This document shows, piece by piece, positions 13,239 to 54,399 of a DNA stretch of 64,000 nucleotides. Numbering within the stretch: the first letter of the stretch is position 1; every line of letters begins with the position of its first letter. The stretch covers positions 1,636 to 65,635 of the forward strand of contig JAJZXF010000003.1 of assembly GCA_021802485.1 (NCBI GenBank), written 5' to 3'. The stretch comes from Actinomycetes bacterium (GTDB lineage: Bacteria; Actinomycetota; Acidimicrobiia; Acidimicrobiales; JAJZXF01). A model generated the notes under the pieces. It was not told the origin of the DNA, made no database searches, and was given only the letters and a program-made list of their open reading frames with translations. A program made the translations under genes and the position numbers.

Positions 13239-13240
13239 CG

Positions 13241-15657: not shown

Positions 15658-15993
15658 TGGTGAGCCTCTTTTCCACTTGTTTCATCATTCGCTTGCGAGC
15701 GAAATGCCCGGAGTCGTTCCAAGTTGTGCTTCCGGTGCCCAGGAACACAACCTGTGTAAACCCTCACCCGGATCACACTTACCACACCAATCTGGAGTCC
15801 GTCAATGATGTTTGCGCTATGAAGCGCATTGGTGTCGCAAACCATGCCTGGCTCAGCATGCGAGTTTGCCAACGCATCCCGAGGTCCACGATGGCCACGA
15901 GACCGCGAGTGGAAGTATCTCCTGGATGAGTCGTGTGATCACTTCAAGCGCCAGCGCGCGGTCTGTCCGAGCCAGCGCTTTCGCCGCAGGCGC

Positions 15994-32394: not shown

Positions 32395-34215
32395 CTAGAG
32401 CAGTTCGCCAACGCGCTTCGCGATCTCATCGTGGACTTCCACCTCCTGCTCGCGAGAAACTCGCACAATCACAACCGCTAGGCCGCGCCGCTCGTGAGCT
32501 GCAACTAGCTCATGGACAAGCTCGGCTGCACTCGACACCTCAATCACTGCTGCGCAAAAGGCTCTCGCGACATCGCCGACGTCGACGGCCGCCGGGGTAG
32601 CGAAGAACCTCTCGAAATCGTCATGTTCCAGCACCTTCGCCTGGGGTAGGAAAGAGAAAATCCCACCACCCGCATTGTCCACGATCACGAGCGTGGCCGC
32701 TATTCTCTCTGTGTCGACGCTCGCAAGCGCTGAGCAGTCATGAAGAAAAGCCAGGTCCCCGAGGAGCGCAACCACCGGGCGGTTCCCGCTGGATGACGCG
32801 CTCACACCAAGAGCGGTAGAGACCACGCCGTCTATGCCGTTGACTCCCCTGTTCGACAAGATTCTCGGTGGATCAGCGACCGGAGGCCCGAACCACTCGA
32901 CGTTGCGGATCGCCATGGACGATGACACAACGAGGTCGCACCCACCATCCATGGCTCGCACAAGGCGGCGAGCCACCGCGGGACCGCAAAGCTCGCCGCG
33001 TTCCACCAGGACCTGGTCCATCACGTCCTGAGCCACATCGTCCGCGTCCTTCCAGCCCGCCAGCCAGCTGTTTCCACCTGCTGTGCTCAGGCTGGAGTCA
33101 CTCCCGCAGGCACCCGCACCCATGCCCCTGCGAGTAGCTTCCCCGGCGACCGCTCTGCAAAAAGATCCAGGGTCGGCCCTTACGGCCCGGGTCGCAACCC
33201 TAGCTGGGTCAGCCCATCGCCACCACGGATCCACCAGGTACTGCTCCACCTGCCTGGATGCGAGATCGGCTATCCAGTCGTTCACGACCCTCGACGCCCA
33301 AGGTGCTCCAATACACACGATCACCTCCGGCTCATGCGAGTCGGCAAAGACCCTCACACGCAACAGAGCATCTGCAGCCGCGATCACGTTACGCGACGCA
33401 GTACGTGCACCTGACCGGGGATCCGCGAGCAGTGGCCATCCAAGAGCGTCGGCCATTGCAACGAGGTCGCCTGGGTCGCCAGCCCCAGAGCCAGCGATGA
33501 TCACCCCCCGCCTACCTGCAATTTCAGGGCGCAGTCCTGAGGGGGCTCGCTGCGAAGCAGGATTCGGAGCCAGCAGTTGTTCGATCACGTCAGCGCTAGG
33601 CGGCGTCGGGGAAGATGATGCAGCATGCCACGGCGCTCCCCCGCTGCGCCCCGAAGGTATGCTTGAGGGTTCGGACACGAGTGGGTCGCGAAACGCTAGG
33701 TTCAGATGGACCGGACCGGGTCCAAACGGGCCCACTGTCGCTTCCATGGCTGAGCGTGCTGCAAGCGACCTCCAGGCGCGGCTCACGCCCACGTCTGCGA
33801 CACCCGGCTCAGCGCTCCAGCGCACGGCCGCGCCGAAGAGCCCGGTCTGCTCGATCGTCTGGGGGGCGCCGACACCATGCAGTTCGGGCGGCCGGTCCGC
33901 GGTGCACACGATCAGGGGAACCCCTGAGTGGTGGGCTTCGAGCACGCTCGGGTGGAGCTCCGCAGCTGCGGTCCCGCTGGTGGTCAAGACGACTACTGGT
34001 CGAGCGCTCTCGAGGCCAATGCCAAGTGCAAAGAAGCCAGCTGAGCGCTCGTCAAGGCGCACGTGGGTAGTGATCGCGTCGTGATGTGCTAGTGCAAGCA
34101 CGAGAGGCGTCGATCGAGAACCGGGCGAGATCACTGCATCGCGGACACCAGCCCTTGCCCATTCATCCACAACGGCTGCTGCAAACGCTGCCTGTACACT
34201 CGTCTGTCGTGTCAT
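32395..34215 (-). CDS. menD: 2-succinyl-5-enolpyruvyl-6-hydroxy-3-cyclohexene-1-carboxylate synthase
   Basis: 606-aa ORF. N-terminus AAVVDEWARAGVRDAVISPGSRSTPL, ThDP motif LLGDLAFLHD, and men gene context. Confidence 0.9.
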   Translation of the reverse strand: MTRQTSVQAAFAAAVVDEWARAGVRDAVISPGSRSTPLVLALAHHDAITTHVRLDERSAGFFALGIGLESARPVVVLTTSGTAAAELHPSVLEAHHSGVPLIVCTADRPPELHGVGAPQTIEQTGLFGAAVRWSAEPGVADVGVSRAWRSLAARSAMEATVGPFGPGPVHLNLAFRDPLVSEPSSIPSGRSGGAPWHAASSSPTPPSADVIEQLLAPNPASQRAPSGLRPEIAGRRGVIIAGSGAGDPGDLVAMADALGWPLLADPRSGARTASRNVIAAADALLRVRVFADSHEPEVIVCIGAPWASRVVNDWIADLASRQVEQYLVDPWWRWADPARVATRAVRADPGSFCRAVAGEATRRGMGAGACGSDSSLSTAGGNSWLAGWKDADDVAQDVMDQVLVERGELCGPAVARRLVRAMDGGCDLVVSSSMAIRNVEWFGPPVADPPRILSNRGVNGIDGVVSTALGVSASSSGNRPVVALLGDLAFLHDCSALASVDTERIAATLVIVDNAGGGIFSFLPQAKVLEHDDFERFFATPAAVDVGDVARAFCAAVIEVSSAAELVHELVAAHERRGLAVVIVRVSREQEVEVHDEIAKRVGELL

Positions 34216-34268
34216 CTCTCGTCGTATCTCAACACGGAATCGGCTGCCAAGCTGACCCCGGTGGAAGG

Positions 34269-35078
34269 TTGCATGCCACGACCCTAGGGCACGGATCCCG
34301 GCTGGTGCTCGTCCATGGCTTCACCCAGACCGGCCGATCCTGGGACCAGGTTGCGAGTAAGCTCAGCTCACAGCATGAGATCGTCCTCGTCGACCTGCCA
34401 GGCCACGGCGGCTCCTCCGCGGTACGAGCCGATCTCGTCACCGGCGCGGCTCTGATAGCACAAGCGGGCGGGAAGGCCGCGTATGCAGGGTACTCGCTCG
34501 GAGGGCGCCACTGCCTGCACCTTGCACTTTTGTACCCGGACCTCGTCGAACGCCTCGTCTTGATATCCGCGTCGCCGGGAATCGCCGAAAACGCCGAACG
34601 AGCGGCACGCAGGGCAACCGATGACGCTCTGGCCGCCAGCCTCGATGTCGGCGATTTGCAGGAAGGCGCTCGATGCCAGCGAGAAACCAGCAACGTGGAG
34701 CACGGTAGATGCCCGAAGCTCGAAGCTTTCCTTCGCACCTGGCTCGATCAGCCATTGTTCTCCAAGCTCGACCACACAACCTCCGGCTTCGAAACCCGCC
34801 TCGCGGAGAATTCATGTGCCGGCCTAGCGTCAAGCCTCAGGCTCGCGGGAGCCGGCGTCCAGGAGTCACTCTGGAAGCGCCTCGGGGAGCTGGACATGCC
34901 GGTACTGGCCATTGCTGGCAGCGAGGATCGCAAGTACGCCAGCATAGCGAGGCGCATGGTTCGCGAGATCGGTACCAACGCTCAGGTCGCGATCGTCGAA
35001 CGAGCAGGCCACGCAGCCCATCTCGAGAGGCCCGATGCCCTCGCCTCGATCTTGGATTCGTTCATGAACAACCGGTGA
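34269..35078 (+). CDS. menH: Alpha/beta hydrolase, probable SHCHC synthase
   Basis: Inside ORF 34086..35078, whose 5-prime part is antisense to menD. The TTG at 34269 is preceded by GGTGGAAGG. Motifs: LVLVHGFTQTGRSW and the nucleophile elbow GYSLGG. The function call rests on the divergent menD context. Confidence 0.65.
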   Translation: MHATTLGHGSRLVLVHGFTQTGRSWDQVASKLSSQHEIVLVDLPGHGGSSAVRADLVTGAALIAQAGGKAAYAGYSLGGRHCLHLALLYPDLVERLVLISASPGIAENAERAARRATDDALAASLDVGDLQEGARCQRETSNVEHGRCPKLEAFLRTWLDQPLFSKLDHTTSGFETRLAENSCAGLASSLRLAGAGVQESLWKRLGELDMPVLAIAGSEDRKYASIARRMVREIGTNAQVAIVERAGHAAHLERPDALASILDSFMNNR

Positions 35079-36148: not shown

Positions 36149-36427
36149 TCAGCGAGGCCGGTAGACGGCAGACCGATGCTGGATGTCGAGGACGATCACA
36201 ACGCGCTTGTCCTCGTTGATCTCGTACAGGATGCGCCACTCACGTCCAAGCCGGGCGCTGTAGATGCCGGTCAGCGTGTCATGAAGTGCTTTGCCCACCC
36301 TGCGCGGGTTGTCGAGGAGTGGCCCGGTGACGAACTCAGACGCCGCTACCGCAACGTCAGGGGGCAACCGATTGGCCAACGCACGACGAGCCGGTGGCGC
36401 GGTTCCCAGCTCGTAGCGTTGGCTCAC
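36149..36427 (-). CDS. Type II toxin, RelE/ParE family
   Basis: 92-aa ORF. The GTG start overlaps the antitoxin stop (GTGA). C-terminus WRILYEINEDKRVVIVLDIQHRSAVYR is typical of RelE/ParE. Confidence 0.85.
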   Translation of the reverse strand: MSQRYELGTAPPARRALANRLPPDVAVAASEFVTGPLLDNPRRVGKALHDTLTGIYSARLGREWRILYEINEDKRVVIVLDIQHRSAVYRPR

Positions 36428-37050: not shown

Positions 37051-37632
37051 TCATTGCGGCTGTGCATTCGCCGCATGAAAGGCATGGCGCTGCGACTTGA
37101 TCCAACCTTCTAACTCTGGTCCGCCAGTGACGAGGCGAACTTCAAGAACACACGTGATTCGTTGAAACATCGTGTTCACGTCGAAACCGACATCCACCTG
37201 TGGCTTTATCGCGAGATGGCGTAGTTCCCAGGATCGGGCAGACACACTCTCGGCTTGAATCAACAACCACCCCGGATTCATGGCGGGGAACACGAGTACG
37301 GCCAGGACGCCGGTCTGCCCCGGATTCAAAATGCCATCCAAGTCGCGTTGCGTGAGAACAATCCTTGATTTATCCGTCGTTTTGACTTCCACGGAAATGG
37401 TATGGCTCTCACCGTCTATCCTCGGAGACGTAGCAGTGAAGTCCGGGACGCCGATTGCATTCTCGATGACGTGGAAGCCCGCTGCTTCAAAACTGCATGC
37501 GAGCACTTGCTGCATCACTCGCCCAAATTCTTGTGGACTCAACATCTTGTAGAGCGAATCCAACTGGTAGATCGTTCGGTTGATCCGACTCCGATCCTCC
37601 TGTGGCTCATCCATCTTCGGCAACGACCGCAC
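37051..37632 (-). CDS. Mrr-like PD-(D/E)xK nuclease-fold protein
   Basis: 193-aa ORF. An alternative ATG at 37614 gives an ATGGATGA overlap with the ATPase stop. Pattern: SPQEFGRVMQQVLACSFEAAGFHV ... GVPDF ... ISVEVKT ... TGVLAVLVF. That is D ... E-x-K in the order and spacing of restriction-endonuclease-fold enzymes. Confidence 0.65.
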   Translation of the reverse strand: MRSLPKMDEPQEDRSRINRTIYQLDSLYKMLSPQEFGRVMQQVLACSFEAAGFHVIENAIGVPDFTATSPRIDGESHTISVEVKTTDKSRIVLTQRDLDGILNPGQTGVLAVLVFPAMNPGWLLIQAESVSARSWELRHLAIKPQVDVGFDVNTMFQRITCVLEVRLVTGGPELEGWIKSQRHAFHAANAQPQ

Positions 37633-39805
37633 ACCCAGCCGACGGGGACCACGACAGACATTTGCGGTCGAGTGACTCCTCCGCCGTTGCGCTGCCGATT
37701 AGTTCATCGAGCTCCGAATCCTGCGTGCCGACAAGGACTTGGAGCTGTGGCGCTAGCCGAGAAAGGATTCCTACGAGTGCCTGCTTGTGCTCGGTATCAA
37801 GATTCTGACTGGGATCATCGAGTATCACAAAGCCAATGTTGTGCTGGAGTTGCGTTGCAAGAGCCAGGTATACGCTCAGCGCAACGCAGTTCATTTGGGC
37901 CGTGGACAAGCGTGAACTCGCAAGCGTCTGACGATTGTCGGTGGATGCGTGCGTGCGGATGAAGTAGTTATTTCGCTCGATTCCTGAAAGGCGCTGGCTT
38001 TCTACAGAGATTTCGATGTCATCGAAATAAGGGTGGTTGCATAGCTCCTTGTACAGCCTTGCGATATCCACCTGCGCGTTCTCTACGGCATCCCCTGCTC
38101 TCGTGCTTGCTTCTGCGGTGACGATATCAGCAATCGTTCTGATGCCATTTTCCAATCTGCTCAGTGACTCGATCTGTTGCTCTGCAACCGAGGAGTCCTC
38201 GTCGCCCTTTCCGAGACGTGATGAAGCCTCCTGATAGTTGGCGTCAAGTTCAAGAAATCGCGCAATCTCCCGGAGCCGTCCCATCAGCGATTGGATTGCT
38301 TCGATCTCCTCTTCTCGCTTGCTCCGCTCCGTATCCACAGTGGAAGCCTGCTGAAAGAGCTTTTCCTTTTGCCTGTCAAGCGCATCGATCAGGTGGTCGT
38401 CGGCTACGTTAGTCGTCAACAACGCACGGGCTTCCGTGCGAGCGTTCGTCATTTCCTCGCCGTATTGCTGGCGTTCCTTGAGCAAACGGCCTCGCTTCGT
38501 GATCGCAGCATCCAGGTCACCGATCCGTCGCTGTTGCTCCATCTCTGACTTATGAGCGGCTGCTATCTCCGTACGAAGGTCGCCACTGAGATGCCCTTCT
38601 AGCCGAGCGATCAACGCATCCCTTTCGATCTCCTGTCCACAGGCCGGGCAGTTGCTCTCACCAACTGATGCTTGAAGGTACGTCAAGGTGTCTTGAACGA
38701 TCCGCTCAGAGATGCCGAGCTTTTCCTGAGCTTCCCGGAACTGCTGGACCGCCGCTTCGGCAGTCGCCTTCTGCTCGTCAAGCGTGTCGAGGTTACCGAA
38801 CCCTTGCTGTAGCTCCGCCACGCTCTTGTCAACGCCATCGAGAAGCGCAGCGACTCTGCGGAGCGTCGTGCGTGCTCCGTCCACGGCGGCAGTCTGCTTT
38901 GACGTGTTGGCTGCGATGGCAGCATTCGTCGCCGTCTGTCGGATGACTTTGATTGCCTCAGTGACTCGACGGTTGAAGCTATCGACCCCATCGGCATCGT
39001 CGGGTTCGGACTGATCTTTGATCGGGGCGACGATCGACGCCGCAAGCGTTTCGAGACAGTCGATCACCTGACGTGCGAGTTGTGCAACGGCGGAAAACGT
39101 GAGGTCTGCTTCTGACAGCCCCTTCTTCTTGGCGTCATCCAAGGCACGTTGCCGATGTGCTTCGACCTGTTCGACGGCACCAGTCAATCGATCGACAGCG
39201 GTTCTCTTGCTCTTCTCCAGCTTGTCGAGAGCGTCACGAACGGGCTTCGCGGAACCGGACAGCGCCTTGAGCATGTCTCGCAGCTTCTCGACCCCGAAAA
39301 GTCGGTCCAGCGCCTCGTTGCAAACCCGCGGATCTTCAGTCAGGAGTCCACGGATGCTTTCTTGATGCAGATACACCGCACGGGCACGGTAAAAGTCGTC
39401 AAAGGTCAACCCGAGCAAACGAAACAGGGCAGCGTTGGCTTCGGTCCCGACGTACTCTTCGCCGTTCGGGAGCTGTACGGTGGCCCCCGCAGCTCGCTTT
39501 CCCGCCTTCTTGGATCGCGTGATTGATGCAATGCCGTCGTCGCTCTCGAGGTCAATCCTGACAGTGGCCGACTGCGCTCTGTGGCGGATGTTGACAAGCT
39601 CGTCATTGGTTGTGTTCTCTTTGGGTTGGTATTGCAACTCACCAAAGAGTGCCCATTCAATCGCACCCAGGATGGAAGTCTTGCCCGATCCATTTGGTGC
39701 GGAGAGCACGGTTGTTTGCCGGTAGAAGTCGATCTCAATCGGGTCACAGATACCCCGGAATCCTTCTGCTTTCAGCCTGACGTGTCGGAGCTTCTGTGCG
39801 CTCAT
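37607..39805 (-). CDS. Rad50/SMC-like ABC ATPase with central CxxC (zinc-hook-like)
   Basis: 732-aa ORF. Walker A: SAPNGSGKTS (aa 35-44, nt 39674-39703). Q-loop-like: YLHQES. A charged helical region spans about aa 170-590. CPAC lies at aa 386-389 (nt 38639-38650), the midpoint of the protein. Signature-like LSTAQMNCVAL, Walker B FVILDDP, D-loop SQNLD. Confidence 0.85.
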   Translation of the reverse strand: MSAQKLRHVRLKAEGFRGICDPIEIDFYRQTTVLSAPNGSGKTSILGAIEWALFGELQYQPKENTTNDELVNIRHRAQSATVRIDLESDDGIASITRSKKAGKRAAGATVQLPNGEEYVGTEANAALFRLLGLTFDDFYRARAVYLHQESIRGLLTEDPRVCNEALDRLFGVEKLRDMLKALSGSAKPVRDALDKLEKSKRTAVDRLTGAVEQVEAHRQRALDDAKKKGLSEADLTFSAVAQLARQVIDCLETLAASIVAPIKDQSEPDDADGVDSFNRRVTEAIKVIRQTATNAAIAANTSKQTAAVDGARTTLRRVAALLDGVDKSVAELQQGFGNLDTLDEQKATAEAAVQQFREAQEKLGISERIVQDTLTYLQASVGESNCPACGQEIERDALIARLEGHLSGDLRTEIAAAHKSEMEQQRRIGDLDAAITKRGRLLKERQQYGEEMTNARTEARALLTTNVADDHLIDALDRQKEKLFQQASTVDTERSKREEEIEAIQSLMGRLREIARFLELDANYQEASSRLGKGDEDSSVAEQQIESLSRLENGIRTIADIVTAEASTRAGDAVENAQVDIARLYKELCNHPYFDDIEISVESQRLSGIERNNYFIRTHASTDNRQTLASSRLSTAQMNCVALSVYLALATQLQHNIGFVILDDPSQNLDTEHKQALVGILSRLAPQLQVLVGTQDSELDELIGSATAEESLDRKCLSWSPSAGCAVVAEDG

Positions 39806-39888
39806 CGTGTCGTCGTTCTCTTGCGAGCAGCGGCCTTCTTTGCAGGTACCTTTTTCTTCGGGGCAGCGCTTTTCGTAACCGACCGGAC

Positions 39889-40086
39889 CTATCTCAGGTC
39901 TTTCTCCACAGCGAGCCTCGATTGCCGCACTCGTTCCACAATTACGCCCTTGACAGCACTCGGGCCGCCATCGTCGAACGCCGCCCGGATGTCGGCCCAG
40001 AGGATGCGAGTGTCCCCGTCCGGCAATGCCTTGCTGATCTTGGCGTCAACGTCATCGAAGATCGAGCCAGCGGACAGCTCAGACAT
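39889..40086 (-). CDS. Small hypothetical protein, first gene of the ATPase-nuclease operon (ends at an in-frame TAG)
   Basis: 65 codons from the ATG at 40086 (MSELSAGSIFDDVDAKISKALPDGDTRILWADIRAAFDD...). The TAG at 39889-39891 is followed in frame by 28 sense codons (VRSVTKSAAPKKKVPAKKAAARKRTTTR). These end in a TGA that overlaps the ATPase ATG (ATGA, 39802-39805). Confidence 0.45.
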   Translation of the reverse strand: MSELSAGSIFDDVDAKISKALPDGDTRILWADIRAAFDDGGPSAVKGVIVERVRQSRLAVEKDLR

Positions 40087-40150
40087 CGGAAGAGCACCCA
40101 GCTCGGTGATCCCGAAGCGCAGCGAACGTCCAGGTTGACATAGGGTAATA

Positions 40151-40179
40151 ATATTACACGGGTGTTCCGACACCGGCAA
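40151..40179 (-). promoter_or_regulatory. Sigma-70-like promoter TTGCCG-17-TAATAT with overlapping palindrome
   Basis: Minus strand: TTGCCG (40179-40174), a 17-nt spacer, then TAATAT (40156-40151). The -10 lies inside the perfect palindrome GTAATA-A-TATTAC (40145-40157). This AT-rich patch is about 60 nt upstream of the small ORF. Confidence 0.5.
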
Positions 40180-40196
40180 CGGTGCTACGCTCCGGC

Positions 40197-40707
40197 TCAC
40201 GGCCGGGGAAGCGCTGTCAAGCCGTACGAGCCACTGCCGACCACCACCACCACCACGTGATCGACCACAACGAGCCCGTATCGGCTGCACGCAGCAGCGA
40301 GGGGGCGGGAGGGTGCGATCCTCCGGTTCCGTAGCGTTCGGAGTGCCCCAGCGGCGGGAGCGGACAGAGACGAAGCCGGTGGCCCGGCGCGCCTGGGATC
40401 CATGGAGGATCGGGCGTGTCGAGGGGCGAGGTGCTTGGACCCAGCCGGCAGCGACGATGGCCGTGCCGACCAGGCGATGCCGATCGTCCAGGTAGGGCGT
40501 CGGCGTGATGTCCTCACAGCGATGGCGGCGCAGGTCTCCGGCGAGCTGCGCAGCCGCTGCAGGGCCGTCGATCCTACGAGGAAGGTCCAGCTTTGCGTCG
40601 GCCACAGCGTCCCGGTGGCAAACGACCCGTCGTCGGCGGGCAAGCGTCCGGATGAGGTGAAAGGTTGTCGGGACCATCGTGGTGCCCTCCAGTGAGAGTG
40701 GATTCAT
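40197..40707 (-). pseudogene. RadC/JAB-like protein gene, frameshifted
   Basis: N-terminal part is in the frame of ORF 39889..40755 (YLDDRHRLVGTAIVAAGWVQAPRPSTRPILHGSQARRATGFVSVRSRRWGTPNATEPEDRTL). The C-terminal part is in the frame of ORF 40197..40643 (PLAAACSRYGLVVVDHVVV...GSGSYGLTA). The switch falls near the C/G runs at 40295-40315. The JAMM HxH position reads RSRRWG. Confidence 0.5.
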
Positions 40708-40929
40708 GGAGGTGACCCACTGGCCACGGACAAAGCGGAGCGCCCGAAGGGGCACTCGGGCGCCTGAGCACGTCTTAAGGCCGCAGCCCTCACGGACGGG
40801 GTGCTACGTGTTCAGGAGTGAAGCCGCTTTGATCTGTTTGGGCGGCTACGAGGCCGGCGTGCCTCGCACCACGCAGGTGTTGACCGTTGCCGGGATAGGG
40901 CGCTACACTGTGTACACAAAGGAGACACA

Positions 40930-41187
40930 ATGGCCAAGGTGAAGAGTATCGGCGTCCGTGAGTTCCGCAACAACGCCAGCACGTACCTCTCCGGCTCGGA
41001 GACGATCGCCGTCAACCGGCACGGCAAGGTGATCGGGTTCTACATCCCGCTCGAACGGGACGAGGACGAGGTCCGGCGTGCTGTGGCCCAACTCGGCGCT
41101 GCTGTCGGCCAGGTTCTGGAAGAGACCGGTATGACCGAAGAGGAGCTGGCACGGGCGTTCGACCTACGACGGCCCATGCCTAAATGA
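40930..41187 (+). CDS. Type II antitoxin (Phd/YefM-like N-terminus)
   Basis: 85-aa ORF with AAGGAGA upstream. Sequence: IGVREFRNNASTYLSGSETIAVNRHGKVIGFYIP. Has an ATGA overlap with the downstream PIN gene. Confidence 0.85.
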   Translation: MAKVKSIGVREFRNNASTYLSGSETIAVNRHGKVIGFYIPLERDEDEVRRAVAQLGAAVGQVLEETGMTEEELARAFDLRRPMPK

Positions 41188-41618
41188 TCATCGTTGCAGA
41201 CGCCAGCGTCCTCGTTGGCGAGTTACTTCGTGACCGTGGGCGCAACCTCATCCTGCACCCGCAGGTGCAGCTCGTGGTCGCCGAGCACCAATGGAGCGAG
41301 GTCGAGCATGAACTGGAGCGGCGTCTGTCCATCATGGAGTCCAGGGGCCGTATCTCCGCTGAGCGACGTAGCGTCCTCGAAGGGGCAGTTCAACACCTCG
41401 TCGATGTCCAGGGCATCGAACTCATCCCTCGAACGGCCTATGAGCAGTTTGAGGAGGCAGCTCGGCGTCGGGTTCCACGAGACCCCAACGACTGGGCACC
41501 GGTGGCCCTCGCCATGGCCCTCGACGCTGGCATCCTGACCGGGGACAACGACTTCCTCGGCTGCGGCTGTCCGACCTGGACGGTCGAGACGCTTCGAGCG
41601 GAGCTGGGGAAGTCATGA
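41184..41618 (+). CDS. PIN-domain toxin (VapC-like)
   Basis: 144-aa ORF with N-terminal MIIVADASVL (first acidic residue) and C-terminal PNDWAPVALAMALDAGILTGDNDF. Confidence 0.85.
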   Translation: MIIVADASVLVGELLRDRGRNLILHPQVQLVVAEHQWSEVEHELERRLSIMESRGRISAERRSVLEGAVQHLVDVQGIELIPRTAYEQFEEAARRRVPRDPNDWAPVALAMALDAGILTGDNDFLGCGCPTWTVETLRAELGKS

Positions 41619-42588: not shown

Positions 42589-43458
42589 TCACACGGCAAT
42601 CCCGACGGCAAGCAACACCGCAAAAACCAGCGCAAGTACTCCCCCCCCGCCTAGGACCCCCACGAGATCGAGCCCCGATACGCCCCGTAGGACCTTCAGG
42701 ACGAGCGACACCGCAAGAGGCAGAGCAATCAACGCCACTGCTGCCCACGGCCTCACCCATGCCACCGGGCCAACGAGCGCAAATGGTGCAAGCACCACGA
42801 AAGCGTAAGAAACCCTCGTCGCCCGCGGCCCCATCCTGACCGCAAGCGTCTTCTTGCCAGCAAGCGCGTCCCCTTCGATGTCGCGCAGGTTGTTCGCCAC
42901 CAGCAGCCCAACTGCCAACAGCCCAACAGGGACCGCGGCGGCTACTGCGAGAGCCGTCAGCTTAAGCGTCTGCACGTAAGCGGTGCCGATCACCGCCACC
43001 AGCCCGAAGAAAACGAACACGAACACCTCTCCCCAGCCTGCGTACCCGTACGGGCGCGGGCCGCCAGTGTAGAGCCACCCCGCGGCGATACACGCTGCCC
43101 CAAGCACAATGAGTTGAGGGCCCACCGCAGCCGCAAGAGCGAGGCCTGCAATCCCTGCGACCGCGAAGCTCACGCCAGCGGCTGCAAGCACTGCCTTGGG
43201 CCGGGCAGCACCGGAAGCCACAAGACGCTGGGGGCCAACGCGCTCAGCATCCGCTCCGCGGACCCCGTCAGAATAGTCATTTGCGTAGTTCGTCGCTACC
43301 TGCAGAGCCCCGGCAACCACGAGGCAAGCGCCCGCCCGCCACCAGATCACCCCGCCCGAGACGCTAGCGACCGCGGTCCCGACGAGCACAGGCGACACCG
43401 CTGCAGGCAGCGTACGCGGCCTAGCCCCCCGGACCCACGCTCCAAACCCTGCGCCCAC
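42589..43458 (-). CDS. menA: 1,4-dihydroxy-2-naphthoate polyprenyltransferase
   Basis: ORF 42589..43527. Preferred GTG at 43458, downstream of the menB stop. UbiA-family motif NYANDYSDGVRGAD, multiple TM segments, men context. Confidence 0.85.
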   Translation of the reverse strand: MGAGFGAWVRGARPRTLPAAVSPVLVGTAVASVSGGVIWWRAGACLVVAGALQVATNYANDYSDGVRGADAERVGPQRLVASGAARPKAVLAAAGVSFAVAGIAGLALAAAVGPQLIVLGAACIAAGWLYTGGPRPYGYAGWGEVFVFVFFGLVAVIGTAYVQTLKLTALAVAAAVPVGLLAVGLLVANNLRDIEGDALAGKKTLAVRMGPRATRVSYAFVVLAPFALVGPVAWVRPWAAVALIALPLAVSLVLKVLRGVSGLDLVGVLGGGGVLALVFAVLLAVGIAV

Positions 43459-43471
43459 CGGCGAACTCCGA

Positions 43472-44410
43472 CTACGGGCGCCGCGGAAAACGGCCAAACT
43501 CAGGCTGGCGGCGCTCAAGAAAGGCATTCCGGCCCTCCTGGCCCTCCTCTGTCATGTAGAACAGCATCGTTGCGTCGCCTGCGAGTTGTTGTATTCCTGC
43601 CAGCCCGTCATCTGCGGCATTAAATGCTCCCTTCAGCATCCGGAGCGCGATCGGCGACATCGCTAGCATCTCCCGGCACCACCCGACGGTCTCTTCCTCC
43701 AGGCGCTCCAGGGGAACAACGGTGTTCACAAGACCCATCTCCAGAGCCTGCACCGCGCCGTACTGGCGGCATAGGAACCAGATCTCCTTCGCCCGTTTCA
43801 ACCCGATCGTGCGCGCCAGCAGCCCAGCTCCGTACCCGCCGTCGAAGCTACCGACCTTGGGCCCGGTCTGGCCGAAAATCGCGTTCTCCGCGGCTATCGT
43901 GATGTCACACACGAGATGAAGTACGTGGCCGCCACCGATCGCGTACCCGGCCACCATCGCAACCACGGGCTTTGGGAGGCGGCGGATCTGTACCTGGAGA
44001 TCCAGCACGTTCAGCCGCCCCACCCCCCTGCGGGCCAAGTCATCATCGCCAAGGTAACCGTCGCTCCCCCTGATCCGCTGGTCTCCCCCCGAGCAGAACG
44101 CTTGGGGTCCTTCGCCGGTGAGCACGATTACGCCGACCTCCGGATCATCTCTAGCGATGTCGAACGCTTTCGAAAGCTCCGACAGCGTCTGTGGTCTGAA
44201 GGCGTTGCGCACCTCGGGACGGCATATCGTGATCTTCGCTATTCCACCAGGTTCCTCGGGCCCGCGAAGCACTTCGAAGCGGATGTCCTCATAGGTTGCC
44301 TGCGGGCAATAGTCTTTCCACACGATTTCGGGACTGCTCACGTACTGCAGGCTATCGTCGCGGGCAACATTGGCCAAGAAATGCTGCAAGAGGGCCTGCA
44401 TCGTCGACAT
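43472..44410 (-). CDS. menB: 1,4-dihydroxy-2-naphthoyl-CoA synthase
   Basis: ORF 43472..44542, start ATG at 44410 (MSTMQALL). Crotonase fold with [11 protein letters not shown] and FDGGYGAG, typical of MenB. Confidence 0.95.
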
Positions 44411-44487
44411 GGTCCAGTCCTGTGCCAAGAACCCAGAGCGACCTCGCGCAACATTGCGCGCCGTTGCGCGCCTATGCTGGCTCGGAT

Positions 44488-45621
44488 ATGGCTTCCCTGG
44501 TTGCCCTCCACATCCCCGGAGGGCCGCGCTTCGTTGAGGCACTGCGGGCTACATGGGAGGCCGGGGACGCAGTCCTTCCCCTTGACGTCCGCCTACCGGA
44601 CGACGCGATCAAGGAGATCGTTGCCCACGCGCGGCCTTGCGCAATCATCACTGCCTCGGGTGATCGCCACCTTCTTCCCGGAGCGCTTCCAGTTGAGGAC
44701 GGCGACGCCCTGGTCGTCTCGACCAGCGGAACTACTGGCACACCGAAGGCCGCAATACTGACGCATCAAGCCGTTCGTGCCTCTGCTGAAGCCTCGAACG
44801 CCAGGCTTCAAGTGGAGCCGGATCGCGGTGACCGCTGGCTCGCCTGCCTGCCACTTGCCCATATCGGGGGACTCTCGGTGGTGACACGTGCGCTCATAAC
44901 TGGTATACCGCTGGTGGTCCATGACGGCTTCAACGCTGAAGCTGTGACAAAAGAGGCGGCAAACGGACCCACGCTCGTCTCCCTCGTCGCCACTGCTCTG
45001 CACAAACTCGACCCCGGCGTGTTCCGGAAACTCCTCCTCGGAGGCTCTGCTCCGCCCGAGAAAGTTCCAGCAAACGCGGTGGTCACCTACGGCATGACCG
45101 AGACCGGCAGCGGCATCGTCTACGATGGCGTCCCGCTCGACGGAGTACAGGTGGCGCTGAACGACCAAGGCGAGATCCGTGTAAAGGGCCCGATGCTGCT
45201 CCGTGCCTACCGCGAAGGCAACGATCCTCACGGCAGCGACCCGAAAAGCCCGGACGGATGGTTCTATACCGGCGACGCAGGATGGCTTGACGAAACCGGA
45301 CACCTGCACGTGCGGGGCCGCGTCGCTGAAGTGATCGTAACCGGTGGGGAGAAGGTCTGGCCACTGACCGTAGAACGGGTCCTGTCAACGCACCCTGCTA
45401 TAGCAGACACCACCGTGGCTGGGGTCGCAGACCCCGTGTGGGGCGAGCGCGTAGTCGCTTACGTCGTACAGTCGGGTGACGAGGCACCAGACCACGACGA
45501 ACTCAGGTCGCTTGTGGCACAGAAGGTCGCGCCATGGGCTGCCCCGAAGGAGATTGTGGTCGTGGATGCACTGCCGAGAACCCCAATGGGCAAGATCGCA
45601 AAGGATCAGTTAGGCCGCTGA
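44488..45621 (+). CDS. menE: o-succinylbenzoate--CoA ligase
   Basis: ORF 44296..45621, start ATG at 44488 (MASLVALH), divergent from menB with a 77-nt gap. AMP-binding motif [12 protein letters not shown] and C-terminal PRTPMGKI. Confidence 0.85.
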
Positions 45622-46904: not shown

Positions 46905-48002
46905 TCAAACCACATCATGGGGTCTCCGGTCGGGTTGTTTCTGTGTTGGATTTCTATGATAGGCGAGTCTGCGAAGGCGTGCTGATTCCAGTCCGGCCTC
47001 TCGTGCCTTGCGGATCGCTGGGCCACGTCCCTCGTGCTCGTCGTCGGGGGTTACATAGCCAATCCCGGCATGGAGGCGTACCCCGTTGTAGTGGGTGCGG
47101 ATGACAGCGAGCTCGGCCCGCAGAACCGCTGGATCCTCTATTTCGAGCAGGTGGGGGTTCTCCATCTTCAGGTGTCCGTTGAAGGACTCGATCCACGCTT
47201 GATCGGTCGGGGTCCCAGGCCGACCGAAGTGCTGGGCAATCGCACACATAGCCATGAACTCCCGGGTCGATCCCGAGGTCATCTGTGGTCCATTGTCTGA
47301 CACTGCGAGCAAGACGGGTCGGTTCTCGTCATCGACTCCTGGATCGACCAGAGCGTCAGCACGGGCTTCGACAAGTGCGAGTAGTCCCTCTGCACAAAGC
47401 GCGTCAGTGAAGACGATCTCGACCTGGGTGGAGGTCTCCTCGCAGGAGACGATGTCGGCCAGCCACTTGCGGCTCACCAGATCCTCGACGATCGTCACTG
47501 CCATTTTGCAGCGGGGAAAATGAGTCGTGTCGTAGATCCAGATCTGGTTCGGGCGGTACTGAACCCATTCGGGGAATGGCTTGCGCAAAGAGGTCCCCGG
47601 TCGTGGCGGTGCTTTGAGATGAAGCCCGTGAGCAGCAAGGACACGCCGTAGTGATGAGGGAGACACCCATACGCACTCCAGGTAGGAGCCCCGGTGGGCG
47701 AGCTTGCGGTGAGAGCGATCGACATCTCCCCACTCGTGGTAGAGCGCTACGATCTCTGTCACCTCGTCATCTAAGAGCCCGTGCATCGGGTTGCCTCCTG
47801 GTGCACGGTCTGAGAGCTCGCCAGCTACCCTGCGCTCGACCCACCGATAGACCCGGAGCTCGTTGAGTTCGAGTTCTCTGCACGCAGAGCGAAAGCTCCA
47901 GCCTTGATCGCAGGCGGCATCGATGAGCTCGAGCAGTGCTTCCTTGGTGGCCGCATCGACTCGGCTTGGGACTTGGCCACTCAGCCCCAGCGTCCTTTTC
48001 CC
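46905..48002 (-). CDS. IS3-family transposase OrfB (rve/DDE), expressed as OrfAB fusion
   Basis: Part of ORF 46905..48449 downstream of the slippery site. DDE candidates: IWIYDTTHF, LAVSDNGPQMTS, AWIESFNGHLK. Confidence 0.85.
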   Translation of the reverse strand, partial: GKRTLGLSGQVPSRVDAATKEALLELIDAACDQGWSFRSACRELELNELRVYRWVERRVAGELSDRAPGGNPMHGLLDDEVTEIVALYHEWGDVDRSHRKLAHRGSYLECVWVSPSSLRRVLAAHGLHLKAPPRPGTSLRKPFPEWVQYRPNQIWIYDTTHFPRCKMAVTIVEDLVSRKWLADIVSCEETSTQVEIVFTDALCAEGLLALVEARADALVDPGVDDENRPVLLAVSDNGPQMTSGSTREFMAMCAIAQHFGRPGTPTDQAWIESFNGHLKMENPHLLEIEDPAVLRAELAVIRTHYNGVRLHAGIGYVTPDDEHEGRGPAIRKAREAGLESARLRRLAYHRNPTQKQPDRRPHDVV

Positions 48003-48343
48003 TCGACAAGCATCAGCTTTACCGCCATCTCTTTCAACGCCTCTCCCAAGCGGACAGCATCTGCCCGGGCGGCTTCGAGCTCGTAGTCGCGTTGCTTGGT
48101 CTTGGCACCGGATTTGGAGTTCGCCAGCGCGGCCAGAGCACCCTCTTTGGCAACGGTTCGTATGCGCATGACGACGCCACGATCTACTCCGTTCTGCTCG
48201 GATGCCTCTGCCATTGTCACCTCCTGGCGAACGAGCTGGAGGAAGATCTCGTACTTTTGCAACGGGGTCAAGAATCGCTTGGATCGCCTTCCGGCGCGGT
48301 CGGTTCCACGGGTGGGATCGGTCATAGGAAGATACTCCTCCAC
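47981..48343 (-). CDS. IS3-family transposase OrfA (HTH + leucine-zipper-like)
   Basis: 120-aa ORF (alternative start MTDP at 48325). Sequence: FLTPLQKYEIFLQLVRQEVTMAEASEQNGVDRGVVMRIR. The helical tail ends VEGKGRWG, overlapping orfB in the -1 frame. Confidence 0.85.
   Translation of the reverse strand: MEEYLPMTDPTRGTDRAGRRSKRFLTPLQKYEIFLQLVRQEVTMAEASEQNGVDRGVVMRIRTVAKEGALAALANSKSGAKTKQRDYELEAARADAVRLGEALKEMAVKLMLVEGKGRWG
47996..48002 (-). promoter_or_regulatory. -1 programmed ribosomal frameshift heptamer G GGA AAA
   Basis: In the orfA frame: GAG GGA AAA GGA CGC TGG GGC TGA. Slipping to GGG AAA AGG ACG CTG gives ...GKRTLGLSGQVPSRVD, which is the orfB frame. Confidence 0.7.
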
Positions 48344-48415
48344 TGGTCGTGGAAACCCGCGGATGTAGTTTGATTGACGGACCGATCTCTATCACGAAGT
48401 CAGGTGCAAACCACA

Positions 48416-48570
48416 ACCATGTCAGCATACGTGTTGGCATGGGGTGCAATTAGATTGTTAGTCCCTTGAAGCGTAAACCACGCCATAGTGCCAAACAGCG
48501 CGAGGATCACGCCAACAACGACAATCGAGACCTTGGAGTTCCCCAAGACTCCTCTCATGACCTTGCGCAT
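48416..48570 (-). pseudogene. 5-prime fragment of a third copy of the ~200-aa membrane-anchored paralog, cut by the IS
   Basis: MRKVMRGVLGNSKVSIVVVGVILALFGTMAWFTLQGTNNLIAPHANTYAD aligns with the N-termini of the 50765..51367 and 53704..54336 products. Homology stops at the IS end (48415). Confidence 0.75.
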
Positions 48571-48801
48571 CTCAGGCACTCTTCACGATCTTTGAGGCTC
48601 GGCCTCATCGAGCAGCATCAACGGTTTCATCACCTAAACGCCCACAAGCTTACGACGGTTCATGAAGTCATCTCTGTAGATAGCAAGCACCAACTGGTCC
48701 CAGCGCCTGCCTGCATGATAGATATGGCCGCGCAGACATCATTCTTGGTGTAATGATGAAGGCCACTTTGGATGAAAGGCCATCGGTGCTGGTAGCAGAG
48801 C

Positions 48802-49422
48802 TCAGCTTGTGGCCATACCAACTATTGGCTTGTTCAAGTGCTTTGCACCCATTGAGCCGTAGAACTTCGCGTCACCGAAGCTGAAGATTCCGCCGTCTGA
48901 TGCTACGAACCAGTAACCCTTGCCATCTGGGGTTGCAGCCATACCAACTATTGGCTTGTTCAAGTGCTTTGCACCCATTGAGCCGTAGAACTTCGCATTG
49001 CCGAAGCTGAAGATTCCGCCGTCTGAGGCTACGAACCAGTAGCCCTTGCCGTCTGGCGTAGCTGCCATGCCAACTATTGGCTTGTTCAAGTGCTTCGCAC
49101 CCATAGAGCCGTAGAACTTCGCGTCACCGAATGAGAAGATTCCGCCATCTGACGCTACGAACCAGTATCCCTTGCCATCTGGCGTAGCAGCCATGCCAAC
49201 TATTGGCTTGTTTAGGTGCTTTGCACCCATCGAGCCGCAGAACTTCGCATCACCGAATGAGAAGATTCCGCCATCTGAGGCGACGAACCAGTAACCTTTG
49301 CCATCTGGGGTAGCAGCCATACCGACAATTGGAGCGTTCAAGTGCTTTGCACCCATAGAGCCGTAGAAGTTCGCGTCACCGAAGCTGAAGATTCCGCCGT
49401 CTGACGCTACGAACCAGTAGCC
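48802..49422 (-). repeat. 5 x 126-nt near-identical coding tandem repeat
   Basis: Period measured from CCATACCAACTATTGGC at 48813 and 48939. The unit encodes GYWFVASDGGIFSFGDAKFYGSMGAKHLNKPIVGMAATPDGK. Confidence 0.9.
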
Positions 49423-50673
49423 AATCCCAGAAGGCGACATTGGCGAGGTGCTATAAGCAAGGATCAGGTTCTGGTATACGGATGCGCTCTTGTATGAACC
49501 TGTAGCCACGCAGAAACTCGAGCCTACGCATGAGACTGAACTGAGATAGTTTGTCTTGGTCGAAGAGGTAGACAACGATGCTGCAGAGTCTAGAGACCAG
49601 GCGCTCCCGTTCCAGGTGAGGACCAGGTTCTGAGCGTAACCAGCGGCATCGATATATTTCCCACCTGCTACACAAAAACTCTGGCTCGTACACGAAACCG
49701 ATCTGAGAGCATCAGCACTACTCCCGGGAGCTGGAAGCGATGCTTGGGTATCCACGGACCATTTGCTCCCGTTCCAGGTGAGGACCAGGTTCTTATCAGT
49801 AGTTCCGTTGTAGAAGACCCCCGCCGCTACGCAAAAACTCGCACTCGCACACGAAACAGACTTCAGTTCATTGAACTGCGACGCCGATGTCGAAAGAGAC
49901 GAAGCGGCATCGAGTGTCCAGGTGTTCCCATTCCAGGTGAGGAGGAGGTTCTGGGACTCTTTGCCTGGACTATAATAACCTGCTGCAACACAGAAACTCG
50001 CACTCGTGCATGATATTGACGTGAACCCGCCTGGCTGGCCCGTGGGGGTAGACAGCGACGCTGCGGTGTCGAGTTTCCATGTACTTCCATTCCAGATGAG
50101 GAGAGTAGTCTGCGGATTACCACTCCCGTTGATGTAGACACCCACCGCAACACAGAAGCTCACACTCACGCACGAGATGGAGGCCAGCACGTTGTCCTGG
50201 GTTGCGGAGGTGGACAACGACGCGGCGGTGTCGAGTGTCCAAGTGCTCCCATTCCAGGCGAGGAGGAGGTTCTGAGCGTTTCCGCTCCCGTTGATGTAAT
50301 ACCCGGTCGCTACGCAGAAGCTCACACTTGAACACGATACCGACATGAGGAAACTCGCAGCTGTAGACAATGATGGCGAAGGGTCGAGAAGCCATCTAGT
50401 CCCGTTCCAAACAAGGACCATGTCCTGTGGATGACTGCTCGCATTCGAATAGAATCCTGCCGCGACGCAGAACTTCTCGCTCACACACGATACGGATTCC
50501 AGTGCATTCAACTGCGTTGCAGATACGGACAATGACGACGAGGCGTCGAGAGACCACGTAGGCGCCAGCGATGCAGCAGATGCTTGAGGCGTCGAAAGCA
50601 TCGTAAGTGATCCAACAAGCAGCGCTGTCATCACGGCACCAACAGCTCCTGCTCTACAGATACGCGAAGACAC
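48802..50673 (-). CDS. Secreted two-module repeat protein, paralog B (7 Cys-pair repeats + 5 GYWFVASDGG repeats)
   Basis: ORF 48802..50970. Preferred GTG at 50673, 7 nt after GGGAGGAG (rc of 50681-50688), giving the signal peptide MSSRICRAGAVGAVMTALLVGSLTMLSTPQASA. Repeats follow as listed. Confidence 0.85.
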   Translation of the reverse strand: MSSRICRAGAVGAVMTALLVGSLTMLSTPQASAASLAPTWSLDASSSLSVSATQLNALESVSCVSEKFCVAAGFYSNASSHPQDMVLVWNGTRWLLDPSPSLSTAASFLMSVSCSSVSFCVATGYYINGSGNAQNLLLAWNGSTWTLDTAASLSTSATQDNVLASISCVSVSFCVAVGVYINGSGNPQTTLLIWNGSTWKLDTAASLSTPTGQPGGFTSISCTSASFCVAAGYYSPGKESQNLLLTWNGNTWTLDAASSLSTSASQFNELKSVSCASASFCVAAGVFYNGTTDKNLVLTWNGSKWSVDTQASLPAPGSSADALRSVSCTSQSFCVAGGKYIDAAGYAQNLVLTWNGSAWSLDSAASLSTSSTKTNYLSSVSCVGSSFCVATGSYKSASVYQNLILAYSTSPMSPSGIGYWFVASDGGIFSFGDANFYGSMGAKHLNAPIVGMAATPDGKGYWFVASDGGIFSFGDAKFCGSMGAKHLNKPIVGMAATPDGKGYWFVASDGGIFSFGDAKFYGSMGAKHLNKPIVGMAATPDGKGYWFVASDGGIFSFGNAKFYGSMGAKHLNKPIVGMAATPDGKGYWFVASDGGIFSFGDAKFYGSMGAKHLNKPIVGMATS

Positions 50674-50764
50674 GTTCAAGCTCCTCCCATTTCTCCATTT
50701 CTCAATCCCGGTATACGACGCAGAAGTGCAGCGCACACCCCATATCCAAATACCATCTCCATCC

Positions 50765-51367
50765 TCAACTATTTGGCCACCCCGGCGTCCAACCTGACCG
50801 CGGGGCATTGCTCGCTTTGCACACCGACGCGCTGGAGGCCTGATACTCATATCCAATGCGCAGGTGCTCCTTGCGAGCAATAGACCTGTCCCCCACCGTC
50901 TGGCGTTCATACCAGCAGTTCTTACCCACACCCTTAGAGGCCACGATGATCTCCTGGCAGGCATTTCCATCAGCGCAGAGGTCGACTGAGACTATTGCAA
51001 TCATCCCGGGTGTGCGCACTCCCTTTCGCTTGACGGACCCGAAATACGAGGATCTGACAACGGCACCTGTTGTCACACTAACCTTCGCGTATCCGCCAAG
51101 GTACGGATTGGTAACGTACGCGACGATCGCATGTAGGGTGACCCCTCTGTAGGACGTGGCGGTGTGGCCTCCGGCGAGTGAGTAAGCAGCATCTGCAACC
51201 GTTTTGTTGCTACCCTGGGCATAGTTGTCAGCAGTGAGCTTCGGGGTCAGATTGCTAGTCCCGAAGAACGTAATCCATGCCAGGGTGCCAAGCAGCGCGA
51301 GGATCACGGCGGCAAGGCCAAGCGAGACCTTGGAGTTCCCCAATACTCGTCTCATGGCACTTAGCAC
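50765..51367 (-). CDS. Membrane-anchored Cys-containing protein, paralog 2
   Basis: 200-aa ORF (GTG at 51367 or ATG at 51355). N-terminal TM: VSLGLAAVILALLGTLAWITFF. Conserved C-terminus: VDLCADGNACQEIIVASKGVGKNCWYERQ ... VCKASNAPRSGW. No family recognised. Confidence 0.7.
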   Translation of the reverse strand: MLSAMRRVLGNSKVSLGLAAVILALLGTLAWITFFGTSNLTPKLTADNYAQGSNKTVADAAYSLAGGHTATSYRGVTLHAIVAYVTNPYLGGYAKVSVTTGAVVRSSYFGSVKRKGVRTPGMIAIVSVDLCADGNACQEIIVASKGVGKNCWYERQTVGDRSIARKEHLRIGYEYQASSASVCKASNAPRSGWTPGWPNS

Positions 51368-51602
51368 CTCAGGAACTCTTCACGATCTTTGAGGCTCGGC
51401 CTCATCGAGCAACATCAACGGTCTCATTATGTCAGCACCCACAAGCCTACGACGGCTCATGAAGTCATCTCTGTAGATAGCAAGCACCAACTAGTCCCAG
51501 CGCCTGCCTGCATGGTAGATGTGGCCGCGCAGGCATCCTTCTTGTTTGATGTAGTGATCAAGGCCACTTTGGACGAAAGGCCATCGGTACTGGTCGCAGA
51601 GC

Positions 51603-52349
51603 TCAGCTTGTGGCCATACCGACGATCGGTTTGTTCAAGTGCTTTGCGCCCATCGAGCCATAGAACTTCGCATCACCAAAGCTGAAGATGCCGCCATCTG
51701 ATGCTACGAACCAGTAACCCTTGCTATCTGGGGTAGCAGCCATGCCGACGATTGGTTTGTTCAAGTGCTTTGCACCCATCGAGCCATAGAACTTCGCATC
51801 ACCAAAGCTGAAGATGCCGCCATCTGAGGCTACGAACCAGTAACCCTTGCCATCTGACGTAGCTGCCATACCGACGATCGGAGCGTTCAAGTGCTTTGCA
51901 CCCATCGAGCCATAGAACTTTGCATCACCGAAGCTGAAGATGCCCCCGTCTGATGCTACGAACCAGTACCCCTTGCCATCTGGGGTAGCAGCCATTCCAA
52001 CGATCGGCTTGTTCAAGTGCTTTGCACCCATGGAACCGTAGAAGTTCGCATCACCGAAGCTGAAGATTCCCCCATCTGATGCCACGAACCAGTAACCCTT
52101 GCCATCTGGCGTAGCTGCCATGCCGACGATCGGTTTGTTCAAGTGCTTTGCGCCCATCGAGCCGTAGAACTTCGCATCACCAAAGCTGAAGATGCCGCCA
52201 TCTGAGGCTACGAACCAGTAACCCTTGCCGTCTGGGGTAGCTGCCATACCGACGATCGGCTTGTTCAAGTGCTTTGCACCCATCGAGCCGTAGAACTTCG
52301 CATCACCGAAGCTGAAGATGCCTCCATCTGATGCTACGAACCAGTAACC
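51603..52349 (-). repeat. 6 x 126-nt near-identical coding tandem repeat
   Basis: Same unit as at 48802-49422, with one more copy. Confidence 0.9.
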
Positions 52350-53612: not shown

Positions 53613-53703
53613 GTTCAAACTCCTCCCATTTCTCCATTTCTCAATCCCGGTATACAACGCAGAAGTGCAGCGCACACCCCATATCCAAATACCATCTCCA
53701 TCC

Positions 53704-54336: not shown

Positions 54337-54399
54337 CTCAGGAACTCTTCACGATCTTTGAGGCTCGGCCTCATCGAGCAACATCAACGGTTTCATCAC

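Follow-up and report, generated by a model that had tools for sequence, protein, structure and literature searches.

A Rad50-like zinc-hook ATPase encoded with an Hjc-like nuclease and a small helical protein: a candidate Lamassu-like defense module of bacteria and archaea

What might a Rad50-like ATPase do when the gene beside it encodes a small nuclease rather than Mre11? The question is raised by a stretch of 64,000 nucleotides from an Acidimicrobiales genome (assembly GCA_021802485.1, contig JAJZXF010000003.1, positions 1,636 to 65,635 of the forward strand), which was analyzed as a whole and is called the window below. Three co-oriented minus-strand genes occupy 37051-40086 of the window and encode a small helical protein (gene A), a Rad50/LmuB-like ATP-binding cassette (ABC) ATPase (gene B), and an Hjc-like PD-(D/E)xK nuclease (gene C). 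An earlier reading of this DNA (the original prediction) had described three tightly packed minus-strand genes, and the open reading frame (ORF) listing of the window recovered all of these ORFs in their places. We consider that the trio is, with somewhat better than an even chance, a self-contained Rad50-derived Lamassu-like module that would sense DNA and control a nuclease, most likely against phages or other mobile elements. It represents a discrete, conserved, and apparently undescribed three-gene family.

The ATPase carries most of the argument. Gene B (37607..39805, minus strand) encodes a protein of 732 amino acids (aa) with Pfam matches to AAA_23, SMC_N, and AAA_15. Every ATPase motif quoted in the original prediction was present: the Walker A SAPNGSGKTS with Lys42 (aa 35-44, 39674..39703, minus strand), YLHQES, LSTAQMN, FVILDDP, SQNLD, and the zinc-hook motif CPAC (aa 386-389, 38639..38650, minus strand), with Walker B and the D-loop lying together in FVILDDPSQNLD (aa 659-670, 37796..37831, minus strand). 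Across 23 relatives of down to 22% identity the invariant residues are G41 and K42 of Walker A, Q148 of the Q-loop, S634 of the signature, D663, P665, Q667, L669, and D670 of the Walker B/D-loop region, and C386, P387, and C389 of the hook, of which there is a single CPxC. Because these residues are invariant over such a distance, the motifs are not chance occurrences. Walker B reads ILDD (hhhhDD), in which Asp replaces the usual catalytic Glu, and D664 is kept in at least 90% of the 23 relatives. At least 90% of the members also have Gln at a site that the standard ABC motif order would make the H-loop.

CPAC had been placed by the original prediction at the apex of a coiled coil, the geometry of a Rad50-type zinc hook. 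In the AlphaFold model of gene B (mean pLDDT 85) the two halves of the head (aa 1-170 and 596-728) are separated by an antiparallel coiled coil of ~200 residues in each arm, with helices 173-379 ascending and helices 395-589 descending. As CPAC sits inside loop 380-394, which joins these helices at the coiled-coil tip, the predicted hook geometry is borne out by the model.

Gene B is closest to Rad50 in both sequence and fold. The family profile gave Rad50 (3qf7, E=7e-29) as its top match in the PDB and aligned the human Rad50 hook fragment 5gox as well. Foldseek searches with the gene B model likewise returned Rad50 first (7zr1, E=2e-21) and solved Lamassu LmuB chains at ranks 21 and 25. The head, coiled coil, and CPxC hook are thus arranged as in Mre11-Rad50/SbcCD. 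In contrast to Rad50, however, the gene B coiled coil is much shorter, the Walker B motif ends in Asp-Asp, and the scores of the Rad50/SbcC families fall far below their cut-offs (NCBIfam Rad50 models, 34-64 bits with cut-offs of 700-1087; the sbcc model, 39 bits with a cut-off of 478). The Pfam Rad50_zn_hook and SbcC_Walker_B families had no match in gene B. The gene B family is sharply bounded, since profile-search scores drop from 453 to 118 bits at its edge.

Among defense models the LmuB model of PADLOC (PDLC03859) matched gene B at 135 bits (E=1e-39), aligning aa 23-703 with model positions 17-592 of 611, and each of the 23 diverse gene B members had LmuB as its top PADLOC model (best E=4e-56). 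It was the only full-length match to a defense model, a moderate one. Several other defense ATPases, namely GajA of Gabija, PtuA of Septu, AriA of PARIS, the DndD-like proteins of Pbe/Dnd, mad3 of MADS, and JetC of Wadjet, share the N-terminal P-loop region with gene B, but they have no zinc hook or have other partner nucleases (TOPRIM, HNH). These systems were rejected, as their matches did not extend beyond the head or the first 60-100 residues and their partners are absent from the operon. Wadjet and canonical SMC proteins differ further in that gene B has a CPxC hook in place of the hinge and that the neighborhoods examined contain no kleisin or KITE gene.

Gene C is a predicted nuclease of another kind than first proposed. 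The longest ORF (37051-37632, minus strand) begins with a GTG at 37632 and encodes the 193 aa given by the original prediction, which also had its start overlapping the ATPase stop. The overlap is real, but the favored start is the ATG at 37614, which is used by gene callers and by all homologues and gives a protein of 187 aa (37051..37614, minus strand) with an 8-nucleotide (nt) overlap. The AlphaFold model (pLDDT 90.6, pTM 0.87) contains an Hjc-like core (~aa 45-135) preceded by a helical hairpin (aa 5-44) and followed by C-terminal helices (aa 146-184). Foldseek gave archaeal Hjc structures as the best matches (2eo0, 1gef, and 2wcw; probability 1.0, target TM 0.62-0.67), followed by EcoRV, the nuclease domain of SPARDA, and RecU. 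Gene C and Hjc thus share the fold, a core of similar size, and aligned D...ExK residues, although sequence similarity is marginal: matches to Hjc had E=0.017-0.7, VRR_NUC or Hjc was recognized for few members, the NCBIfam Hjc model scored 12.4 bits with a cut-off of 70, and Pfam Hjc matched one of seven members (E=5e-4). Gene C further differs from Hjc proteins in its extra N-terminal hairpin and C-terminal helices, in that its gene always follows that of a Rad50-like ATPase, and in being mostly bacterial. The extra helices would be candidates for docking or for regulated oligomerization.

The catalytic signature P57-D58...E76-V-K78 (GVPDF...VEVKT, 37381..37446, minus strand) is invariant, and in a profile that includes distant members D58, E76, and K78 align with D33, E46, and K48 of Hjc. 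Invariant residues down to 25% identity are P57, D58, E76, K78, D19, Q35, D91, G94, and W116. The signature noted by the original prediction is therefore real, but it is more accurately called Hjc-like than Mrr-type: no Mrr_cat match was found at E<=10 among seven gene C members, the only PD-(D/E)xK matches being VRR_NUC and Hjc, and the fold is Hjc-like. From its modeled fold and its invariant D-ExK triad, gene C looks like an active nuclease.

The gene C family is small: among 1.84 billion representative proteins, searched exhaustively with HMMER, it comprises 115 clusters, mostly of 160-190 aa. Two side observations concern this family. About 15-20 representative proteins of 190-270 aa (P0167, P0175, P0180, P0184, P0191, P0196, and similar ones) matched the gene C profile twice in swapped order, profile positions 70-135 lying near the N-terminus and positions 18-76 near residues 150-210, suggesting that they are relatives of gene C with a circular permutation or another rearrangement. 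One lineage (L010:8675-10240 / L011:3549-5114) encodes a 521-aa TPR protein without a PADLOC match; as its gene and the end of the nuclease gene share ~10 nt, it may be a lineage-specific fourth component.

The smallest gene turned out to be damaged in the window. The 65-codon ORF listed by the original prediction exists (39889-40086, minus strand; ended by the TAG at 39889-39891), but it is a truncated copy of a conserved protein of 74-121 aa, the stop codon of which overlaps the ATPase start in relatives. Translation of the window through the TAG reads ...EKDLR-TAG-VRSVTKSAAPKKKVPAKKAAARKRTTTR-TGA, with the TGA overlapping the ATPase ATG (ATGA), and the ancestral frame is one of 94 aa (39802..40086, minus strand). 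Relatives having ATPases 81-88% identical to that of the window have a Gln codon at the TAG site (CAG in L022, CAA in L019 and L017), indicating that the 65-codon ORF is a recently truncated allele of the 94-aa protein (CAG to TAG). The window protein has lost its basic tail and the translational coupling to gene B, and owing to this nonsense codon the window copy of the operon may be impaired.

The alignment of gene A proteins shows a conserved core, LW..I..F..GGP..V, followed in most members by a Lys/Arg-rich tail. No relatives were found in Pfam, PADLOC, or the PDB, the PDB search returning designed coiled coils only. Descent from the Mre11 C-terminus was considered and is unsupported, since hhalign with the Metallophos proteins of two outgroup operons gave a probability of <1%. 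Note that gene callers fuse gene A into an ORF of 262-288 aa that reaches upstream (window 40087-40755, minus strand). As the upstream 223 aa of this fused ORF have no Pfam match and gene A of the relatives begins at an internal ATG within it, the long ORF is probably spurious or a decayed gene.

How far the three genes belong together was answered by a scan of 185,579 species representatives (one genome per species). The trio is rare and patchy, with 66 loci, and the genes beside the ATPase were identified in them with hidden Markov models (HMMs) built in this analysis. The pairing of ATPase and nuclease, set beforehand as a point on which the original prediction could fail, is conserved: the nuclease gene lies directly downstream of the ATPase gene in 50 of the 59 loci having downstream DNA. 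Among the nine loci lacking an adjacent nuclease are those with the most divergent or longest ATPases, as well as three in which the ATPase frame is fragmentary or reaches its end at a contig edge. Upstream, 55 of 58 loci have an ORF of 55-200 aa whose end coincides with the ATPase start; 22 of these ORFs were recognized by HMM, and those sampled from the rest show the same helical pattern. The order small gene-ATPase-nuclease holds in every annotated neighborhood, down to 27% ATPase identity; the annotation of one locus had missed the small gene, which was recovered by translation. The hosts are both bacteria and archaea and include Acidimicrobiales, Chloroflexota, Acidobacteriota, Planctomycetota, Cyanobacteria, Peptococcaceae, Bacteriovoracaceae, Thermoplasmata, Nitrosopumilaceae, Micrarchaeota, and others.

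The surroundings of the trio point to defense. The window copy lies in an island of ~7 kb that splits a menaquinone gene cluster, its borders being an alpha/beta-hydrolase gene beside menD (32395-35078) and menA/menB (42589-44542). The guanine plus cytosine (GC) fraction is 0.55-0.58 over the operon (37-40 kb) versus 0.63-0.66 in both flanks, and the island is a horizontally acquired one in an Acidimicrobiales genome. The same region is found, identical, in several metagenome assemblies and in assembly GCA_027410605.1, and the close relatives come from Acidimicrobiales metagenome-assembled genomes. Two toxin-antitoxin (TA) pairs flank the trio, and Pfam identified their toxins as ParE (36149-36427) and PIN_2 (41184-41618). 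The toxins of the TA pairs noted by the original prediction were thereby confirmed, but the RadC-like and transposase relics that it saw beside them lack Pfam support.

Annotated neighborhoods elsewhere are mostly those of defense genes or mobile elements. One locus combines an OLD/GajA-like ATPase-TOPRIM protein, TerB, a BrxC/D-like ATPase, a DEAD helicase, a methyltransferase, an integrase, AbiEi, and a TA pair; a second has a short pAgo with a Ymh-family protein; a third has an AriA/OLD-like ATPase and a methyltransferase; a fourth has SIR2, two TIR proteins, and a methyltransferase; and a fifth has an integrase, TraG, and methyltransferases. As a separate observation, a gene pair encoding a HARE-HTH protein of 160-165 aa and a protein of 764-771 aa with a GHKL (HATPase_c_3) ATPase motif is found right beside the trio at four or more divergent loci that are independent of one another (L085:4192-7010, L083:4719-7505, L012/L013:1082-3891 on the opposite strand, and L027:3854-5486; also L084:6699-7226). 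The GHKL proteins are ~29-30% identical to one another, the pair has no PADLOC match, and the window lacks it; it may accompany the trio as an optional partner or be an uncharacterized defense pair in its own right.

Lamassu is the known system that the trio most resembles. Each is built of three parts: an ABC ATPase with a coiled coil and a Rad50 origin, a small protein whose gene directly precedes the ATPase gene, and an effector nuclease; both occur in defense islands, and LmuB is the top defense model for gene B. The long Lamassu LmuB proteins have an hhhhDD Walker B and a single CxxC (Haudiquet et al., PMC12663957), a pattern matched by the ILDD and the one CPxC of gene B. The position of gene A relative to the ATPase gene, which it abuts, is that of LmuC relative to LmuB. 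In stating that no gene of LmuC size is present, the original prediction overlooked gene A at the LmuC position, although gene A has no sequence similarity to LmuC. The differences are also clear. Members of the gene B family (~725 aa) fall between the short (~600 aa) and long (~800 aa) LmuB proteins, and the effector is a stand-alone Hjc-like nuclease of 165-200 aa in which an LmuA C-terminal docking domain is not recognizable and which Foldseek matched to Hjc, not to LmuA.

Several observations weigh against reading the trio as a Lamassu-like immune module, and the first of these concern Lamassu itself. The trio order is small protein-ATPase-nuclease, whereas that of Lamassu is LmuA-LmuC-LmuB. 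Among seven diverse members each, gene C had no PADLOC match to LmuA and no Pfam ABC-3C CTD family (CTD1-12), and gene A had no PADLOC match to LmuC and no Pfam MC family (MC1-8); neither had any PADLOC match at E<=10, and NCBIfam scans of the two proteins added no LmuA, LmuC, CTD, MC, or Mrr match. Moreover, the archaeal Rad50-like families Rkd4 and ASRP scored 144 bits (in three stretches) and 91 bits with gene B, as compared with 135 for LmuB. The missing LmuA, LmuC, CTD, and MC matches also count against the view that the trio is an already catalogued Lamassu (ABC-3C) subtype, recognizable by current DefenseFinder models or the Krishnan 2020 classification, and nothing new. That view draws on the full-length LmuB match of all 23 members and on the fit of hhhhDD and a single CxxC to the description of long Lamassu (PMC12663957), and it gains from the great diversity of Lamassu, which includes Mrr and PDDEXK effectors and to which a 2025 re-survey added 12% more systems. 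We nevertheless think it distinctly unlikely, as the normal LmuA and LmuC partners are absent, the effector is small, has no separate LmuA-type C-terminal domain, and lies downstream of the ATPase, the solved LmuB structures rank below Rad50, and the literature searched never pairs Hjc with Lamassu. Nor did that literature describe a defense operon of Rad50-like and Hjc-like proteins, the ABC-ATPase classification of Krishnan 2020 lying outside the scope of the search. Because the LmuA docking domain and the Lamassu gene order were not found, and LmuC is matched in position only, we do not class the trio within Lamassu; it would be a Lamassu-like variant or, possibly, a parallel Mre11-Rad50 derivative.

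A second set of observations hints at repair. The first outgroups of gene B are ordinary Rad50 proteins encoded beside Metallophos (Mre11/SbcD) genes, and in one of these operons (L086) the Metallophos stop overlaps the ATPase start, as does that of gene A in intact relatives. Two Bathyarchaeia loci (L075:7790-11400 and L078:7759-11389), which belong to the nine without an adjacent nuclease, encode in place of the Hjc-like nuclease a protein of 137-138 aa and a radical-SAM protein similar to spore-photoproduct lyase, a pairing that hints at DNA repair. In this divergent sister group the small upstream gene is kept and the ATPase is shorter (645-652 aa); it could be a case of effector swapping or a repair-type relative. 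The nuclease itself raises a further doubt, since the invariant Gln35 appears, from a manual register, to be the counterpart of Hjc Glu9, so that the catalytic competence of gene C is not certain.

On this evidence the trio could serve DNA repair or recombination as an accessory machine comparable to SbcCD/Mre11-Rad50, with an Hjc-type structure-specific nuclease in the place of Mre11 acting on hairpins, stalled forks, or Holliday junctions of the host. Gene B is indeed nearest to Rad50, Hjc proteins are junction resolvases, and one locus has RtcB/archease neighbors. A host repair machine seems unlikely to us, however. The family is present in only ~66 species representatives scattered across unrelated phyla, and its sporadic, island-borne distribution is a difference from Mre11-Rad50. 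Its low-GC islands hold integrases, TA pairs, pAgo, OLD-like, TIR, and SIR2 genes, the Asp-Asp of Walker B suggests weak turnover, and the window tolerates a gene A nonsense allele. No annotated trio neighborhood contains a Metallophos gene for an Mre11/SbcD metallophosphoesterase, whereas the outgroup Rad50 operons have one. This agrees with the original prediction, which had seen no Mre11/SbcD, kleisin, KITE, or helicase partner; neither Mre11/SbcD nor kleisin nor helicase is encoded in the operon. Its overall description, an uncharacterized module with Lamassu as the nearest concept and a non-canonical layout, stands because the ATPase-nuclease pairing is conserved, the hook is predicted by the model, and the Lamassu partners as well as Mre11/SbcD, kleisin, and helicase are absent.

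Immunity could also have been reached along another route. We regard as possible, though rather unlikely, an independent conversion of a compact Mre11-Rad50 into an immune system outside Lamassu, in which Mre11 would have been replaced by a minimal adaptor encoded upstream and a junction-resolvase-type nuclease encoded downstream. Such a system would make a structure-specific attack on branched or end-containing phage intermediates rather than cause abortive infection and, if true, this would be a second, parallel repair-to-defense route, common to bacteria and archaea.

The last observation that weighs against the Lamassu-like immune module is the lack of any trio copy in the PLSDB plasmids (72,556 records) or INPHARED phages (50,697 records), as searched by tblastn with the ATPase against both collections and with the nuclease against the plasmids. 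The same negative bears on a different proposal, that the trio is not anti-phage but a module for maintenance of, or competition among, mobile elements, for example an addiction cassette carried by integrative elements or an anti-plasmid system resembling Wadjet. One locus lies in an integrative conjugative element (integrase, HTH_17, and TraG coupling protein) and another beside an integrase, the window copy sits between two TA pairs, and the SMC-like Wadjet and DdmABC systems restrict plasmids. With no copy in the plasmid and phage records, no kleisin/KITE partners, and neighbors that are mostly classical anti-phage genes, such a role is in our view very improbable.

Returning to the Lamassu-like reading, we infer how such a module might work from the anatomy of the three proteins and their context; this applies to the biochemical steps, to the complex itself, and to the immune role, the word immune being taken from genomic context. 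In solved Lamassu complexes two LmuB protomers together with LmuC keep the oligomerization domain of LmuA sequestered close to the hook, and sensing of DNA ends frees LmuA to form the active tetramer (bioRxiv 2025.03.14.643221; PMC12663957). By analogy, the gene B ATPase would dimerize through the Zn hook and the ATP-engaged heads and would recognize DNA ends or abnormal replication or recombination structures of an invader. The Walker B Asp-Asp suggests that it may act as a slow ATP-gated switch rather than as a motor. Gene A occupies the place of LmuC or of the SbcD end that binds Rad50, and its product is likely to bridge the complex and to contact DNA with the basic tail. Gene C would be held inactive on the B2-A complex, possibly as a monomer, and upon sensing it would be released or repositioned, dimerize as Hjc-type enzymes do, and cut DNA.

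Upstream of gene A the original prediction had seen a promoter-like element. A scan for consensus sigma-70 promoters and terminators at the trio found nothing, but a non-coding block (40087..40170, minus strand) with a -10-like hexamer (TAATAT/TATTAT) is conserved across most of the Acidimicrobiales relatives examined. The block aligns with relatives L017-L021 and L005 and reads AACACC.GTG.., the hexamer, and then ..ATGTCTACCTGGAC...; the hexamer at the same place is TACAAT in the relatives (TAGAAT in L005), and in the window it falls within a perfect inverted repeat, GTAATA-T-TATTAC (40145-40157). L022, the closest relative examined, lacks the block. It is probably a promoter/operator plus leader, a reading that is only suggestive in view of the negative scan for consensus promoters. 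For the RNA of the conserved leader, consensus folding gave a weak structure (-5.4 kcal/mol) with negligible covariation, so that no convincing RNA structure was found.

Elsewhere in the window two further stretches have a low GC fraction, 48001-56000 (0.54-0.56) and 12001-16000 (0.54-0.58, with the GC skew reversed as well), versus ~0.60-0.62 around them, and these may be additional horizontally acquired islands.

Lamassu is the current model for a Rad50-type repair sensor turned immune switch, and the trio presents the same three roles in smaller form. Its economy lies in a bare Hjc-type effector having no separate docking domain and in an accessory protein of only 65-120 aa, together with an ATPase that is nearer to Rad50 than is any solved LmuB. 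If defensive, the trio would add a bacterial and archaeal family not called as a system by PADLOC v2 or Pfam, and it would provide a minimal system for how a hook ATPase licenses a nuclease. It would also test whether a dimeric resolvase fold can be activated by effector oligomerization, as the Cap4-type LmuA nuclease is by forming tetramers. In evolutionary terms it may link SbcCD and Lamassu, either as an intermediate or as a parallel route.

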